From the NCBI GenBank assembly GCA_964536865.1, contig CAZHYN010000001.1, positions 210,001-242,000 on the forward strand: a DNA stretch of 32,000 nucleotides, given 5' to 3'. Every line of letters begins with the position of its first letter. The first letter of the stretch is position 1. The DNA comes from an uncultured Planctomycetia bacterium. Its GTDB lineage: Bacteria; Omnitrophota; Gorgyraeia; Duberdicusellales; 4484-171. Below the pieces are notes generated by a model, which saw nothing but the letters and a program-made list of their open reading frames with translations, did no database searches and was not told the DNA's origin. The position numbers and the translations under genes were made by a program. This document shows positions 2,407 to 7,592 of the stretch, piece by piece.

Positions 2407-3612
2407 ATGGTTTTTTTCTCTTATACAGTAAGGACAAAGGAGGGTAAAACTGTAAGGGGGAGTTTAGAAGCGGAATCTAAAGAGAAGGCTTTAGAATACC
2501 TTCACTCTCAGGGTAATATCATTTTATCCCTTAAAGAAGAAAAGAAAAAAGTTACCCCGAAAAAAAGAGGAGGGAGAGTTAAAGTTGATGAATTGGTGGT
2601 CTTTTCTCGACAGCTTACTACTTTGATAGAGAGCGGTATTCCTGTGGTAGGAGCTTTAGATATTCTTTGGCAACAAACTACTAATCCTTATTTTAAGGCA
2701 GTCTTGGAGGATATTCTGAAGGAGTTAAGGGAGGGAGCGTCCTTAGCTTCCAGTTTAGCAAAACATCCTAAGGTGTTTCCTGAAATTTATGTAAGCATGG
2801 TAGAGGCTGCAGAGACTTCAGGGAACTTACCTCAGATACTGAATAGATTATCTCTGTATTTAGAGAAGGCGAATGCCTTAAGAAAAAAGATTATTTCCAG
2901 TTTAACCTACCCTGCTATTGTAGTAATAATGGCTATAGGGATAAGTAGTTTCCTTATCTTTAAAATTATCCCTACCTTTAAGGGAATATTTGATACTTTA
3001 GGAGGAGATTTACCTCTTCCTACTCAGCTCCTGATTGGTTTTGCTGAGTTAGTGAGAAAAAATGTTCTCTACTTGATAGGAGTTTTTATTATTGCACTGG
3101 TTGCTTTCTACAGATACATCTCTACTCCTAAGGGAAAGAAAATGTATCATAAATTTCTTTTAAATCTTCCTATCTTAGGAGATATAGTAAGAAAGATTAG
3201 TATTGCTAAATTTTCTCGCACCTTTGCTACTCTGATGAAAAGTGGAGTAAATATTACTACTACTCTGAATATCGTAGGCAAAACCAGTGGAAATAAAATT
3301 ATTGAGGAGGCAGTAGCTAATTCTAAAAAAGCGATTCAAGAAGGCATTCCTATTTCTAAACCTCTGGAAGAAAGCGGAGTTTTTCCTCCTATGGTGATAC
3401 GGATGATTGCTGTAGGAGAAAAGAGTGGGAAGTTGGAGGAGATGCTTTCTAAGATTGCTCAGTTCTATGAGGAGCAGACTGATGCGGTAATTTCCGGGCT
3501 TACTAGTTTAATCGAACCTATTGTTATAGCGTTCTTGGGGATAGTTATCGGAGGTATTGTAGTTGCTCTATTTTTACCCATTATAAAGATAACTCAACTT
3601 TTAGGAAGATGA
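2407..3612 (+). CDS. pilC: PilC/GspF-family inner-membrane platform protein
   Basis: 401 aa with duplicated GspF-type domains (FSRQLTTLIESGIPV... and FSRTFATLMKSGVNI...) and three hydrophobic TM segments. Lies 8 nt after the ATPase gene. Confidence 0.9.
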   Translation: MVFFSYTVRTKEGKTVRGSLEAESKEKALEYLHSQGNIILSLKEEKKKVTPKKRGGRVKVDELVVFSRQLTTLIESGIPVVGALDILWQQTTNPYFKAVLEDILKELREGASLASSLAKHPKVFPEIYVSMVEAAETSGNLPQILNRLSLYLEKANALRKKIISSLTYPAIVVIMAIGISSFLIFKIIPTFKGIFDTLGGDLPLPTQLLIGFAELVRKNVLYLIGVFIIALVAFYRYISTPKGKKMYHKFLLNLPILGDIVRKISIAKFSRTFATLMKSGVNITTTLNIVGKTSGNKIIEEAVANSKKAIQEGIPISKPLEESGVFPPMVIRMIAVGEKSGKLEEMLSKIAQFYEEQTDAVISGLTSLIEPIVIAFLGIVIGGIVVALFLPIIKITQLLGR

Positions 3613-3621
3613 CTTTAAAAG

Positions 3622-4062
3622 ATGAAGGATAATTTTACTCTGGTAGAAGTTATGATTGTGGTAGGGATTTTGGTACTTTTAACTGTTCTAGTAGTTCCTA
3701 ATATTTTAAGAGCCCGCATTACTGCTAACGAAGTAGGAGCAATTACTTCCTTAAAAACTGTCTTTTCCTCTGCTCAAATTTATAAAAATATCAACTCTGT
3801 CTACCCTTCCTCTTTAGGAGATTTAGGAGATGCTAATCCCCCTTATATTGAGGAAGAGTTAAGCTGTAATGACCAACCTTGTCCCAAACAAGGGTACAAT
3901 TTCACTCTTACTGGCTCGGAGTACTCTTTCTATGCGGTAGCCTCTCCTCAGATTTTTGGCTTCACCGGGATAAGAAGTTTCTACATAGACGAAAATGGCC
4001 TAGTTAAGTACTGTGATACCGCTGATTGTGATCCTTCCCAGGGGATAATCCTTCAAGAGTAG
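3622..4062 (+). CDS. Type IV pilin-like protein with atypical class III signal (Asn at -1)
   Basis: N-terminus MKDN|FTLVEVMIVVGILVLL...PNILRARITANE is paralogous to the pilin at 4460. Glu+5 is present, but the usual Gly-1 is Asn. Four Cys in the C-terminal half. Confidence 0.75.
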   Translation: MKDNFTLVEVMIVVGILVLLTVLVVPNILRARITANEVGAITSLKTVFSSAQIYKNINSVYPSSLGDLGDANPPYIEEELSCNDQPCPKQGYNFTLTGSEYSFYAVASPQIFGFTGIRSFYIDENGLVKYCDTADCDPSQGIILQE

Positions 4063-4079: not shown

Positions 4080-4108
4080 TTGAAAAATACCTCCAGGTAT
4101 GCTATATT
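4080..4108 (+). promoter_or_regulatory. Sigma70-type promoter candidate (TTGAAA-17-TATATT)
   Basis: TTGAAA at 4080-4085, 17-nt spacer, TATATT at 4103-4108. The spacer contains the palindrome TACCT-CC-AGGTA (4088-4099). Confidence 0.5.
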
Positions 4109-4114
4109 TTAGGT

Positions 4115-4346
4115 AGACAATCTTGGGAACGAGAAAGGCAAACTCAGGGTAACCTGGGGACCCGCGAAAGCGGCTATTTACCTAACTGGGTAAATAGGCA
4201 AAGCCGTGCGTCCCGCTCTTTCTAAAACCCAGATTAACAGGGGTTTGAAGTTAAAGTGCATAAGGGATGCAGAGGCAGGTAAACTGCAGGATTTAACTAG
4301 AAATATGAAAAGGGCGGGATAGGCAGGTTGCCGAATTCCTAAAAAT
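4115..4346 (+). ncRNA. Candidate structured RNA (riboregulator or sRNA) of unknown class between two pilin genes
   Basis: No ORF. Locally GC-rich in an AT-rich genome. Hairpins: 4143-4148/4153-4158 (GUAA loop), 4162-4165/4170-4173 (GAAA loop), perfect 9 bp 4174-4182/4189-4197, 4225-4230/4241-4246, 4268-4272/4284-4288. Possible long-range pairing 4211-4216/4314-4319. Bounded by a promoter and an intrinsic terminator. Ends are approximate. Confidence 0.5.
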
Positions 4347-4376
4347 ACCCAGGTAGGTTATTACCTGGGTTTTTTA
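4347..4376 (+). terminator. Rho-independent terminator
   Basis: ACCCAGGTA (4347-4355) / TACCTGGGT (4362-4370), 6-nt loop, followed by a T-run through 4375. Confidence 0.7.
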
Positions 4377-4396
4377 ATAGAGAGGGGGGGTAAATA

Positions 4397-4424
4397 TTGA
4401 CATTTCTTCAGATTGTGGTATAGT
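4397..4424 (+). promoter_or_regulatory. Strong sigma70-type promoter with extended -10 for the major pilin
   Basis: TTGACA 4397-4402, 16-nt spacer, TGg-TATAGT (TG 4416-4417, -10 at 4419-4424). About 35 nt upstream of a strong SD (AAGGGGGTGAGG) and ATG 4460. Confidence 0.65.
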
Positions 4425-4459: not shown

Positions 4460-4855
4460 ATGAGGAAAGGTTTTACTTTGGTAGAAATTATGATTGTTGT
4501 AGCAATCATCGCCCTTTTGGCAGCTATTGCTATTCCTAACCTGCTAAGAGCTCGTATCACCGCTAATGAAAGTGCTGCTCAGGCAAACTTAAGAACTATC
4601 TCTACTGCTTTAGAAAATTATGCAGCTGCTAACAACGGAAGTTATGCCACTGACGAGAGTCAACTTACCGATGCTACTCCTCCTTACTTGAATCAATCCT
4701 TCTGTGGCAATACTATTCAAGGGTATACTTACTCTTGTACCCTTGCTGCTACTGGATACACAGTAACCGCTACTCCTGCATCCTGTGGGACGAGTGGAAC
4801 AAAGACTTATACTATAACAACTGGTGGTGTTTTATCTTCAGCGGATTGCTCTTAA
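4460..4855 (+). CDS. pilA: Type IV (pseudo)pilin, probable major subunit
   Basis: MRKG|FTLVEIMIVVAIIALLAAIAIPNLLRARITANE is a canonical class III signal (Gly-1, Phe+1, Glu+5). 131 aa with four Cys, including a C-terminal pair. Has its own promoter, a strong SD and its own terminator. Confidence 0.9.
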   Translation: MRKGFTLVEIMIVVAIIALLAAIAIPNLLRARITANESAAQANLRTISTALENYAAANNGSYATDESQLTDATPPYLNQSFCGNTIQGYTYSCTLAATGYTVTATPASCGTSGTKTYTITTGGVLSSADCS

Positions 4856-5276: not shown

Positions 5277-5790
5277 ACTAAAGGGGGTTACTCTAGTGGA
5301 AGTTCTCATCGTTACGGCAGTTATGTCAACAATTTTTGCTAGTTTATTTTATGTGCTTACACAGGGGTACCTCTCTAATGAAATTGGGTTAGCAAAGCTA
5401 AAACTTCAAGAGGAAGCAAGGAGGGCGATAGAGGTTATAGGAAAGGATGTTCGTCAGACTACGGTAAGTGAAATCAAAAGTAATAATCCTTCCAGCTCTC
5501 ACCTTAAGTTTCGTATTTATCAAGATTACTCTGGAGGTAATCCTCAATGGAGTAGTAACTATATCGAGTATACTTATGATGCCAATTCTTATAAACTTCA
5601 ACGTACCGATTATAACTCAAATATTACCACCTACTTTTATAACATAGCTAGCCCCCCTTTTGATGTTGAAGAGTTAATTAACAATAACGAAAATAAAATA
5701 AGTATCGATTTAAATATGCAAGAGACAGTGAAAGGTTCTTTACCGATAAATTTTTCTTTAACAGGAGAGGTGACCATACGCAATGAGTAA
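5212..5790 (+). CDS. Minor pilin, PilW/GspJ-like, with long (25-aa) leader
   Basis: Motif ...PKLKG|VTLVEVLIVTAVMSTIF. The only canonical start upstream of the motif is ATG 5212, preceded by GGAGGTGA (5198-5205). Overlaps the previous gene by 65 nt. EEARRAIEVIGKDVRQ resembles PilW/GspJ. Confidence 0.65.
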   Translation: MSTGQREVRRELSHSRHIFLPKLKGVTLVEVLIVTAVMSTIFASLFYVLTQGYLSNEIGLAKLKLQEEARRAIEVIGKDVRQTTVSEIKSNNPSSSHLKFRIYQDYSGGNPQWSSNYIEYTYDANSYKLQRTDYNSNITTYFYNIASPPFDVEELINNNENKISIDLNMQETVKGSLPINFSLTGEVTIRNE

Positions 5791-6685
5791 AAAGGGAGTA
5801 GCTCTTCTTTTAGCCCTTTTGATTCTAGCAGTTCTAGGTATTCTAGGAAGTTCACTTTTTATAAGTAGTTTAACAGAGAGCAACCTAACGAAGAGAGATA
5901 TAAGAGGGAAAAGAGCCTTTTGGGCAGCGGAGTCAGGAATTTCTAAAGGGATAGAAAAGTTAAAAGAATGTGTACAAAGTGGTGATTGCCAGGTAAGCGG
6001 GACTATAGATTATGAAAATGAGAGTTATTCCTATTCTGCTACTATTTCCGTATTAGATAGCCTAAATTATCGTATAGATTCCTCAGGTTCTTTAGGTCAG
6101 ATAACTAAGAATATTTCTGCAGTTGTAAGGTTGAGAGATATCGATGCTAATAATTTTCCTTATGCTATAGAAACTGAGGGTCTTTTGGAGATCGGAGGAA
6201 ATGCTCAGATAACTCCTTCTGATAGCACCAAAGAGCAATCATCTTTAGATTTTAATAGTCTGTTTACTTTTACTAAGGAAGAATTAAAGTCTTACGCTGA
6301 TTACACCTATACGGATCCTCCCAATAATATCACTCCTTGTGAGGGCATCACTTGGGTAGATGTATCTCCTGAGGATGAGTTTAGAATAACTTCAGATAGT
6401 TGGGAAGGTAGTGGTATTCTTGTGATTGAAGGCAATGTTAAAATAACTGGAGGGAGATTCCGAGGGATAATATATATTATTGGGGGGCAGTTAGAGGTAC
6501 CTTTAGAGGTAGCAGCAGGTAACCCCATCATAGAGGGAGCTATCCTAGTGGAATGCATACCCACTAGTACTACTCGCATAAGAGGAGATTTTACTTTGAA
6601 TTATGATCTCGATGCTATCAACGAAGCTTTGGATAATTTAAGATTTATTGCTCCTCGAATAGTAGCGTGGTGGGAAGGTAGTTAA
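5783..6685 (+). CDS. PilX/GspK-like minor pilin (PilX_N-type N-terminus), paralogue 1
   Basis: KKGVALLLALLILAVLGILGSSLF...RAFWAAESGI matches the PilX N-terminal pattern (hydrophobic helix plus A..AAE.G). ATGAGTAA overlap with the upstream gene. Confidence 0.7.
   Translation: MSKKGVALLLALLILAVLGILGSSLFISSLTESNLTKRDIRGKRAFWAAESGISKGIEKLKECVQSGDCQVSGTIDYENESYSYSATISVLDSLNYRIDSSGSLGQITKNISAVVRLRDIDANNFPYAIETEGLLEIGGNAQITPSDSTKEQSSLDFNSLFTFTKEELKSYADYTYTDPPNNITPCEGITWVDVSPEDEFRITSDSWEGSGILVIEGNVKITGGRFRGIIYIIGGQLEVPLEVAAGNPIIEGAILVECIPTSTTRIRGDFTLNYDLDAINEALDNLRFIAPRIVAWWEGS
5911..6171. repeat. 261-bp direct repeat, copy 1 (100% identical to 6833-7093)
   Basis: Base-by-base comparison: identical from AAGAGCCTTTTGGGCAGCGG... 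to ...CCTTATGCTATAGA. The flanking bases differ (5910 a vs 6832 t; 6172 a vs 7094 g). Confidence 0.95.
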
Positions 6686-6707: not shown

Positions 6708-7592
6708 ATGAGAAAAGCCATCGCCTTAATTTTTAGCCTTTTAGTAATGGCAGTTCTATTTATAATTGGGCAGTCCTTTTTCACTCAGACCTTAAATGGA
6801 AGTAACTTAGTGAAAAGATATGTAACCTCCTTAAGAGCCTTTTGGGCAGCGGAGTCAGGAATTTCTAAAGGGATAGAAAAGTTAAAAGAATGTGTACAAA
6901 GTGGTGATTGCCAGGTAAGCGGGACTATAGATTATGAAAATGAGAGTTATTCCTATTCTGCTACTATTTCCGTATTAGATAGCCTAAATTATCGTATAGA
7001 TTCCTCAGGTTCTTTAGGTCAGATAACTAAGAATATTTCTGCAGTTGTAAGGTTGAGAGATATCGATGCTAATAATTTTCCTTATGCTATAGAGAGTCAG
7101 GGAGCGATTGAGGTAAAGGGAAGTGCTCAGATAACTCCTTCTGATAGTAAAAAGGAGAATAGCGATTTAGATTTTAAAAGTTTATTTGGTTTTACTAAGG
7201 ATGAACTAAAGAGTTATGCTACCTACTATTACCAGGATCCTCCCAATAATGTGGAGCCGGTTGAGGATATAACTTGGGTGGAGCTCTCTGAAGGAAAAGA
7301 ACTTAGGATTACTTCTAACAATTGGGAAGGTAGTGGCATTCTGATAATTAATGGGGATGCTAAAATAACAGGTGGGGAGTTTGAAGGAATAATTTATGTG
7401 ATTGGAGAGTTGGAAGTGCCTGCAGGCAATCCTACGGTAGAGGGGACCATTTTGGTAGAAGGAGACCCTTCAGAGACTACAAGTTTGAGAGGTAATTTTG
7501 AGTTAGACTACGATACAGAGGCAATAGATGAAGCCTTGAATAACTTAAGATATGTGGCTCCTCAAACTGTAGCTTGGTGGCAAACTTATTAG
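6708..7592 (+). CDS. PilX/GspK-like minor pilin, paralogue 2
   Basis: Same architecture as 5783..6685. The central 87 aa are identical, and the N- and C-terminal parts are roughly 40-65% identical by eye. Confidence 0.7.
   Translation: MRKAIALIFSLLVMAVLFIIGQSFFTQTLNGSNLVKRYVTSLRAFWAAESGISKGIEKLKECVQSGDCQVSGTIDYENESYSYSATISVLDSLNYRIDSSGSLGQITKNISAVVRLRDIDANNFPYAIESQGAIEVKGSAQITPSDSKKENSDLDFKSLFGFTKDELKSYATYYYQDPPNNVEPVEDITWVELSEGKELRITSNNWEGSGILIINGDAKITGGEFEGIIYVIGELEVPAGNPTVEGTILVEGDPSETTSLRGNFELDYDTEAIDEALNNLRYVAPQTVAWWQTY
6833..7093. repeat. 261-bp direct repeat, copy 2
   Basis: See copy 1; offset is 922 bp. Confidence 0.95.

Follow-up and report, generated by a model that had tools for sequence, protein, structure and literature searches.

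The stretch analysed here, referred to as the window, comprises 32,000 nucleotides (nt) of contig CAZHYN010000001.1 (positions 210,001 to 242,000), filed under an uncultured Planctomycetia bacterium and placed by GTDB in the Omnitrophota. It carries a type IV pilus operon encoding a PilT-like fragment, PilB (with MshEN and T2SSE domains), PilC, pilins, minor pilins and a secretin. A gap of 397 bp separates the gene for a pilin-like protein (3622-4062) from the next pilin gene (4460-4855), and it contains, in this order, a promoter, a structured RNA, an intrinsic terminator and a second promoter. Our comparative analysis indicates that the structured RNA (4116-4376) is very probably a class I riboswitch for cyclic di-guanosine monophosphate (c-di-GMP), of the GEMM-I family, in the type IV pilus operon of a member of Candidatus Omnitrophota. 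To the explanation as a whole, an expanded GEMM-I riboswitch working by the switch proposed below, we assign a probability of roughly 0.8.

The gap had been singled out in an earlier reading of the same DNA, the original prediction, as a promoter-to-terminator RNA rich in hairpins, and every feature of that layout was found where it had been placed. In the promoter scan, promoters 1 and 2 were the two top-scoring matches on the + strand in 3 kb; transcription from promoter 1 is predicted to start near 4115, about 10 nt 5' of helix P1. All six helices that had been listed (4143-48/4153-58, 4162-65/4170-73, 4174-82/4189-97, 4225-30/4241-46, 4268-72/4284-88 and 4211-16/4314-19) are complementary, and the string ACCTGGG is indeed present at 4152-58 and again at 4363-69. 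The claimed rise in G+C is real but modest rather than clear (0.45-0.50 against 0.32-0.44 in the flanks), and the gap does have an open reading frame (ORF), a trivial one of 38 aa at 4206-4322. The + strand RNA 4110-4380 has a minimum free energy (MFE) of -98.3 kcal/mol, compared to -70.7 +/- 4.7 for 200 dinucleotide shuffles (z = -5.9, 0/200). An RNA from the antisense strand was considered and set aside: it folds less well (z = -4.75 vs -5.91) and has no family match. As in the earlier reading, Rfam scans of the window gave no tRNA, tmRNA or other RNA family. The features are collected in Table 1.

Table 1. Features of the pilin intergenic region in window coordinates, with the equivalents of key nucleotides of the Vibrio cholerae Vc2 aptamer.
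Feature	Position	Strand	Basis or remark
Upstream pilin-like gene, 146 aa, prepilin-type N-terminus	3622..4062	+	ORF list; called as gene in sister contigs
Promoter 1, TTGAAA-17-TATATT, extended -10 TG, 10/12	4080..4108	+	promoter scan
P1 5' strand, GGAA + CG	4126..4131	+	pairs with 4336-39 and 4332-33; AA 4334-35 bulged
J1/2 and core string AGAAAGGCAAA	4132..4142	+	Rfam alignments, sequence
P2 hairpin, 6 bp, GUAA (GNRA) tetraloop	4143..4158	+	sequence, covariation
GAC, including C4161 (Vc2 C44 equivalent)	4159..4161	+	alignment to RF01051 and RF03167
Accessory hairpin A, CCGC-GAAA-GCGG, first half of the C44/G45 insertion	4162..4173	+	model R1, covariation
Accessory hairpin B, 9-10 bp, loop UAACUG	4174..4197	+	covariation
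GCAAAGCC: G45-C46 closing pairs, A4200 (A47 equivalent), P3 start	4198..4205	+	invariant in two-hairpin alignment; RF01051 register in sister alleles
P3 5' strand (AGCC, UGC, UCCCGC)	4202..4216	+	pairs with 4314-4329; constrained fold
Distal P3 branch; ~4221-4313 is a ~90-nt lineage-specific insertion in the P3 apical loop (predicted)	4217..4313	+	absent from L206-L208
P3 3' strand (GCGGGA, UAG bulge, GCA, GGUU), then G4330, C4331	4314..4331	+	sequence; RF01051/RF03167 alignments of relatives
P1 3' strand (CG, AA bulge, UUCC)	4332..4339	+	constrained fold
Intrinsic terminator, 10-bp stem (5 G-C pairs) at 4347-4370, then U6 tract	4347..4376	+	terminator scan, MFE fold
Promoter 2, TTGACA-16-TATAGT with TG, 11/12; pilin gene's own	4397..4424	+	promoter scan
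Pilin gene, 131 aa, N_methyl motif, presumed regulated gene	4460..4855	+	ORF list, Pfam PF07963, homologues
Vc2 G20 equivalent	G4137		alignment to L002, L206, Rfam consensus
Vc2 G21-C22 equivalent	G4138-C4139		
Vc2 C44 equivalent	C4161		
Vc2 G45-C46 equivalent	G4198-C4199		
Vc2 A47 equivalent	A4200		alignment to L002, L206, Rfam consensus
Vc2 G83 equivalent	G4322		in UAG bulge
Vc2 C92 equivalent	C4331		alignment to L002, L206, Rfam consensus

The original prediction had noted a likeness to the c-di-GMP-I aptamers and suggested an Rfam scan, which gave no match at gathering level. In E-value mode the best match was a weak one to RF03167 (c-di-GMP-I-GGC) at 4128-4186, with 26.4 bits against a gathering score of 59 (E = 4e-4) and a truncated P3. 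By gathering score the window copy therefore stands outside RF01051 and clan CL00126, a consequence of its two insertions, the hairpins at 4162-4197 and the P3 branch. The likeness was nevertheless right, as the relatives revealed. When the gap region was searched with nhmmer against 80 loci anchored on PilC in GTDB genomes, L002 was the single match; a regular expression for the core found the riboswitch in 1 of the 80 loci, and Rfam on L002-L018 matched L002 only. This locus repeats the arrangement of the window: TTGAAA-17-TATATT, then AAAGGCAAAC, P2 with a GUGA loop, GGACGCAAAGCC, P3 and GGGUAGGCAGGUUACCGAGC, followed by a terminator, TTGACA-16-TATAGT and a pilin gene. Its aptamer is compact, with neither of the two insertions, and scores 66.2 bits with RF03167, above the gathering score of the clan member. 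Three sister alleles (L206-L208), whose pilins are 94-96% identical to that of the window, have P1, P2 and both accessory hairpins identical to the window copy, as well as the terminator and both promoters. P3 is short in all three alleles (GCCGUGCGCCCCG-CUCUAACUU-CGGGGUAGGCAGGUU, with CUCUAACUU as the apical loop), and they pass the RF01051 gathering score marginally, at 35.5-37.7 vs 35; a further relative, L214, reaches 58 bits.

RF03167 is thus the best Rfam model for both the window fragment and L002, and it shares the short P3 without the 11-nt receptor. It differs in its consensus G after GACGC (GACGCGAAgC), a position occupied by A in the window, in L002 and in L206-L208 (GCAAAGCC), as it is in RF01051. 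The register that cmscan proposed for RF03167 in the window, in which hairpin A (CCGCGAAAGCGG) is taken as the G45-C46-47 junction and P3 is truncated, was rejected, the insertion-containing register being supported by L002, L206-L208 and the covariance model R1 described below.

In this register, the window RNA shares with RF01051 and its Vibrio cholerae representative Vc2 a three-helix aptamer with a GNRA-capped P2, the core strings GGCAAAC, GGAC, GCAAAGCC and GGUUGCCGAA, nucleotides equivalent to G20, A47 and C92 and to the partners C44 and G83, an intrinsic terminator after the aptamer and a position upstream of a surface or motility gene. The strings AAAGGCAAAC, GGAC, GCAAAGCC and GGCAGGUUGCCGAA are all present, and the conserved blocks at 4134-4143, 4158-4161, 4198-4205 and 4323-4335, including a GgcUGCCGAA-like 3' block, match the Rfam consensus lines. 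The P1/P2/P3 architecture folds at -92.6 kcal/mol when the aptamer is constrained. Compensatory changes were observed in P1 (GGAA/UUCC in the window, GGAG/CUCC in L002) and in P3 (U4211-A4319 in the window, C-G in L206-L208); several P2 pairs differ between the window and L002, and a strain variant, T4144C, turns a U.G pair of P2 into C-G. The window departs from RF01051 and Vc2 by its two covarying hairpins between C44 and G45 (a predicted four-way junction), its P3-loop branch of about 90 nt, its score below gathering, the lack of a receptor for the GUAA loop at the canonical distance, and a regulated gene with its own promoter after the terminator.

In structures of Vc2, G20, A47 and C92 are ligand-contacting pocket residues. 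GEMM-I variants that bind 3'3'-cyclic GMP-AMP (3'3'-cGAMP) exist, and the hairpin insertion of the window adjoins G45, C46 and A47, so one might imagine that the accessory hairpins remodel the pocket for a different ligand of this kind. We regard this as very improbable: the equivalents of G20, A47 and C92 are all of c-di-GMP identity, whereas cGAMP-selective GEMM-Ib RNAs mostly have A at position 20, and the genomic context is that of a classic c-di-GMP target.

The C44-G83 pair and the tetraloop contact of GEMM-I aptamers have been described (PMC11705072). Of the elements for such inter-helix contacts, C4161 and the bulged G4322 are present in the window, and the GUAA loop of P2 is without a receptor at the canonical distance. 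The P3 insertion contains UCUAAA (4221-4226) and UAUGA (4303-4307), the same letters as the RF01051 tetraloop-receptor consensus (uCUAAg...uAuGa), about 10 bp further from the junction than the RF01051 receptor; the loops at hand are GUAA in P2 and GAAA in hairpin A. Docking of the hairpin A loop on this motif was considered; neither geometry nor comparison supports it: the sister alleles keep hairpin A and have no such motif.

The accessory hairpins lie exactly between GGAC (C44) and GCAAAGCC (G45). A two-hairpin insertion had been thought to break the fit to GEMM-I; it turned out to be a conserved, covarying module in at least 22 distinct GEMM-I sequences. We scanned metagenome contigs with the pattern AAAGGCAAAC-N10-22-GGAC-N12-42-GCAAAGCC, which fixed the flanking core strings and so biased the sampling of two-hairpin members, and obtained at least 119 stretches. 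Among the stretches listed, at least about 35 are genuine GEMM-I elements with a 3' GC..GG(U/C)(U/C)(A/G)CC block, and at least about 20 have exactly the layout of the window: P2(GNRA), GGAC, hairpin A, hairpin B and GCAAAGCC, with zero linker nucleotides. Many of the scanned GEMM-I stretches are marginal in Rfam (37-47 bits vs 35), and several are missed. Model R1, built for the 5' half of the element from 21 two-hairpin sequences, matched the window with 56.2 bits (E ~1e-11). In an alignment of 22 sequences, 94.5% of cells pair (91-93% in hairpins A and B), and changes on both sides were found for 6/6 pairs of hairpin A and 7/7 of hairpin B, 13/13 in total; in P2, 5/6 pairs covary. The covariation score was 0.872, compared to 0.207 for shuffles (0/500) and at most 0.22 with the partners slid. 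Covariation so far above shuffles indicates that the accessory hairpins are a selected structure and not noise.

Judging from these alignments, the accessory hairpins are predicted to make a four-way junction of the P2 internal loop, and they mark an apparently undescribed and widespread GEMM-I subclass. The literature searched, itself a limited body, yielded no description of the two-hairpin insertion, of GEMM-I insertions or of Omnitrophota riboswitches, and the 2017 paper that presented 224 candidate structured RNAs gives no account of the GGC variant in its main text.

Several other expanded arrangements came to light in the same collection. Tandem GEMM-I pairs, each pair on one transcript, occur in L147 (699-822 and 910-995, - strand) and L139 (11091-11207 and 11321-11442), with one canonical copy (88 bits in L147) and one copy bearing the two-hairpin insertion. 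In a second group among the listed stretches, the two inserted hairpins precede the GNRA hairpin on its 5' side, as in L112 (1253-1364), L123 (1613-1733, - strand) and L088 (330-489). These three copies are upstream of IS200-like Y1_Tnp ORFs (MPRLPRIY...; Pfam match for the L123 ORF), with repeated AAAAGTGCCAGGCATAA motifs separating terminator and ORF. Many inserted hairpins have CCGCCA-N5-7-UGGCGG in common (L126, L175, L189, L112, L123, L172 and L088), and in L088 this hairpin is found in the 5' insertion and again inside P3, which suggests a reused module or binding site and not an arbitrary helix.

The second expansion of the window copy is of a different kind. Because the P3 loop is short in L206-L208, the segment ~4221-4313 can be read as a lineage-specific insertion of about 90 nt, and the P3 branch, on comparison of the alleles, appears to be a recent insertion in the apical loop. 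The distal interior (4217-4313) had been proposed as a domain closed by 4211-16/4314-19; this interpretation gives way to that of the P3-loop insertion, and the hairpins noted at 4225-46 and 4268-88, while complementary, lie inside a segment that folds no better than shuffles. The extension was therefore rejected as an independent structured domain (z = -1.18 vs shuffles), and it was likewise rejected as a repeat or mobile element, no other copy having been found in the window or in any collected locus. A weak collinear similarity relates the insertion (4217-4313) to its host aptamer (4126-4345), with AAACCCAGAUUAAC resembling AAACUCAGGGUAAC and GAGGCAGGU resembling UAGGCAGGU, so that the insertion may be a decayed internal duplication. 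The case for a decayed nested aptamer copy is weak: the global alignment is matched by 35/1000 shuffles, and local alignments are non-significant.

Could the P3 insertion have disabled the aptamer, leaving a decaying or inactive riboswitch of which only promoter and terminator persist ahead of a pilin promoter that suffices by itself? The inserted segment is confined to this lineage and does not fold better than random sequence, the close relatives L209, L210 and L212 have no riboswitch, and the window copy is below the Rfam gathering score. The segment is placed, however, in the apical loop of P3, a site at which relatives accommodate 29-141 nt; all core nucleotides and helices are intact and identical to those of the sister alleles, and several independent assemblies contain the allele with the insertion. 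We consequently judge decay quite improbable, and prefer an intact aptamer.

The second promoter had also been noted in the original prediction, which raised the option of a stand-alone small RNA (sRNA). The promoter scan confirmed it, and the order promoter, riboswitch, terminator, second promoter, pilin gene recurs in L002, L206-L208, L091, L169 and L214; related riboswitches are found 5' of pilin genes in L002, L091, L169, L182 and L214. The hexamers of promoter 1 are kept in L002 and L206-L208. Those of promoter 2 are kept in L002 with a diverged spacer, and this promoter is kept in L206-L208 too; the terminator of L206-L208 shows one U-A to U.G change. In L209 (1428-1503), L210 (406-481) and L212 (1439-1503), whose pilins are 78-90% identical to that of the window, a single promoter without riboswitch is located between PilC and the pilin gene, and in L209 and L210 it is homologous to promoter 1 of the window. 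Presence and absence of the predicted riboswitch is thus, from these sequences, a polymorphism within the lineage. The riboswitch-free L213 and L215-217 have the same pilin promoter as L091 and L214 (cTTGACA...gaaaggaggtg.TATAAA). Since it is present with or without the riboswitch, the pilin promoter appears to be the constant part and the riboswitch unit a dispensable upstream add-on.

This conserved Omnitrophota pilin promoter, cTTGACAaaaa-N-GAAAGGAGGTG-N-TATAAA (L091 11370-11400, - strand; L213, L214 and L215), has a Shine-Dalgarno-like string in its spacer and is followed by a 5' untranslated region of 160-200 nt.

How the aptamer might communicate with the terminator was examined by comparing alternative folds. 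The terminator is separate from the aptamer, with its own 5' arm and no overlap with P1 or P3. Hairpin B provides a partner for this arm: its loop and 3' arm (4181-4192, CCUAACUGGGUA) are complementary at 11/12 positions to 4346-4357 (UACCCAGGUAGG). For the nascent RNA ending before the terminator 3' arm, the MFE structure (-83.4 kcal/mol) is the one in which hairpin B pairs with the terminator 5' arm, compared to -81.7 kcal/mol for an alternative using the P2 arm and -76.8 for the aptamer-enforced fold. The duplex of aptamer and terminator 5' arm has -17.9 kcal/mol, against -12.4 +/- 2.1 for shuffles (13/1000). Between the 5' half of the aptamer and the whole expression platform, complementarity is enriched in the window (26/500), L206 (15/500), L112 (13/500) and L214 (37/500), and it is strongest in L002 (-35.1 vs -18.9 +/- 3.3, 0/500). 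In L002 and L123, the terminator loop and 3' arm contain GUUUGCCU, the complement of the core string AGGCAAAC; in L214 the two partners have changed together (GGGUAAAC:GUUUACCC), and L091 has a classical anti-terminator overlapping the 3' strand of P1. The ACCTGGG repeat had been taken to give mutually exclusive folds through the 3' arm of P2. That pairing is possible; hairpin B is the stronger partner, and the strict exclusivity does not hold in the full-length MFE structure, which contains both aptamer and terminator.

We propose the following model. Transcription would start at promoter 1. As long as c-di-GMP is absent, the terminator 5' arm would be paired with the loop and 3' arm of hairpin B, with the 3' arm of P2, or with both, and polymerase would continue past promoter 2 and transcribe the pilin gene. 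Binding of c-di-GMP would lock the aptamer, the terminator at 4347-4376 would form, and the transcript would end as an RNA of about 260 nt. Promoter 2 would also serve the pilin gene, and since the gene has this promoter of its own, the riboswitch would modulate rather than gate pilin transcription. The alternative pairings together agree with an OFF switch, for which support is moderate. We consider a terminator-based mechanism in cis to be likely, and rate the OFF direction, with c-di-GMP leading to termination, at even odds. The family assignment, the architecture, the conserved accessory hairpins and the two-promoter layout are shown here; c-di-GMP binding, the OFF direction and the pairing of the anti-terminator are inferred.

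Several observations weigh against this explanation. No Rfam model reached its gathering score anywhere in the window. The full-length MFE structure accommodates the aptamer helices and the terminator together, so the two are not intrinsically exclusive, and the anti-terminator could form only by opening a stable local hairpin some 160 nt upstream. The support for the anti-terminator amounts to p ~0.01-0.05 in this lineage and, the pairing being invariant among the available strains, comes without covariation; its sequence is not common to L091, where the anti-terminator is P1-based. In the two-hairpin members L202, L103 and L153 the terminators overlap the 3' side of the aptamer, which follows ON-type logic. 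The conservation of promoter 2 implies that pilin expression is independent of read-through, and both the binding of ligand by the window RNA and its effect on expression are predicted.

The terminators of the subclass members lead directly to the opposite direction of control, an ON switch in which c-di-GMP binding prevents termination and raises pilin transcription. In L109, as in L202, L103 and L153, the terminator 5' arm is the 3' strand of the aptamer. Moreover, c-di-GMP up-regulates type IV pili in several bacteria, and the Clostridioides difficile pilA1 riboswitch (Cdi2_4) is, like the window element, a c-di-GMP riboswitch that precedes a type IV pilin gene and works by way of a terminator; it differs in being an ON switch with a GEMM-II aptamer, and we know of no report of a second promoter between terminator and pilin gene at pilA1. 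The riboswitches of C. difficile have been the subject of a review (PMC11477304). The terminator of the window, by contrast, has its own 5' arm clear of P1 and P3, the only enriched alternative pairings join the terminator region to aptamer elements that are folded in the bound state, and L091 and L002 have OFF-type alternatives. An ON switch is on balance doubtful for the window, though it keeps a real chance.

The main rival, which we hold to be unlikely, is the stand-alone sRNA: a constitutively terminated GEMM-I RNA of about 260 nt whose ligand affects its stability or an activity in trans (e.g., c-di-GMP buffering), with the pilin expressed from promoter 2 only. The predicted elements do have the corresponding layout of own promoter, own terminator and independent downstream promoter. 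The strong terminator is compatible with a folded aptamer, the near-consensus promoter 2 after it is kept in L002 and L206-L208, and the same pilin promoter exists with the riboswitch (L091, L214) or without it (L213, L215-217). There are also precedents, Vc2-terminated sRNAs of Vibrio cholerae and Bc1 of Bacillus thuringiensis being GEMM-I elements with an output beyond simple gating of a downstream gene. For Vc2, c-di-GMP binding controls the stability of sRNAs ending just after the riboswitch (bioRxiv 10.1101/617340). Bc1 has a long platform with separate terminators and little downstream response, its downstream genes being without response to c-di-GMP (PMC11218506). The 3' end of the Vc2 sRNA does not arise from termination, whereas the window has a canonical intrinsic terminator and then a conserved promoter. 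Against the sRNA speak the position of the unit, which in this lineage is always immediately 5' of a pilin gene and in the same orientation, the homology of promoter 1 to the promoter that drives the pilin directly in riboswitch-free relatives, and the enriched complementarity between the platform and the aptamer 5' half, for which a constitutive terminator would have no need. On coupling of terminator and aptamer state the two lines of evidence thus stand side by side: coexistence in the full-length MFE structure, and enrichment of the complementarity (13/1000 for the 5' arm, 26/500 for the platform).

With the terminator-controlled riboswitch as the preferred explanation, the element represents a known kind of regulator, a c-di-GMP-I riboswitch, in an expanded variant, and the new part is the apparently undescribed two-hairpin subclass. 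A more far-reaching version is tentative, and we would not expect it to hold in full: the two-hairpin insertion would define an unrecognised four-way-junction GEMM-I subclass at the pocket, hairpin B would be a ligand-gated partner of the terminator arm, and the whole unit, added ahead of a pilin promoter that suffices on its own, would boost transcription under repression by c-di-GMP or, alternatively, be an autonomous sRNA that binds c-di-GMP. If this is true, the coupling through hairpin B would make the seemingly peripheral insertion part of the switch itself. A four-way-junction form of the GEMM-I aptamer, with its extra hairpins beside the ligand-intercalating adenosine, could, if confirmed, inform work on pocket pre-organisation and biosensor design. 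The case also illustrates a detection gap, in that genuine riboswitches of uncultivated phyla can drop below curated Rfam thresholds via lineage-specific insertions: the predicted c-di-GMP sensor of this Omnitrophota bacterium is invisible at the gathering score, and its sister alleles pass marginally. It would tie c-di-GMP signalling to transcription of the major pilin in the Omnitrophota, which are ultrasmall, possibly host-dependent and almost unknown in their regulation, through an unusual layout in which a riboswitch is followed by a terminator and then by an independent promoter.

The surrounding genes and their relatives are consistent with an Omnitrophota origin. PilC (2407-3612) is 99% identical to that of a Candidatus Omnitrophota metagenome-assembled genome from Guaymas, and the next relative, at 77% identity, is that of L002, on a complete Omnitrophota chromosome. 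The exact pilin of the window was found on contigs of ENA, JGI and Logan assemblies with intergenic regions almost identical to that of the window; near-identical copies in independent assemblies indicate that the region is not an assembly artefact. The 146-aa pilin-like protein encoded upstream (3622-4062) has no Pfam match, and no terminator was found between its stop codon and the riboswitch promoter. The PilB ATPase (711-2399) has an MshEN domain at 70 bits. Members of the MshEN family are known c-di-GMP receptors, so c-di-GMP may be sensed in this operon at both the RNA and the protein level. As regards taxonomic labels, L014 (JAIWAR010000006.1) is titled 'Methanosarcinales archaeon', and its PilC shares 62% identity with the Omnitrophota query; the contig is probably a binning contaminant, and several 'uncultured Planctomycetia' titles look similarly mislabelled. 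Further downstream in the window, the tandem ORFs 5783-6685 (300 aa, with a weak PilX_N match) and 6708-7592 (294 aa) share a long identical internal stretch (RAFWAAESGISKGIEKLKECVQSGDCQ...NNFPYAIE), which suggests that a minor-pilin-like gene was recently duplicated in tandem or underwent gene conversion.

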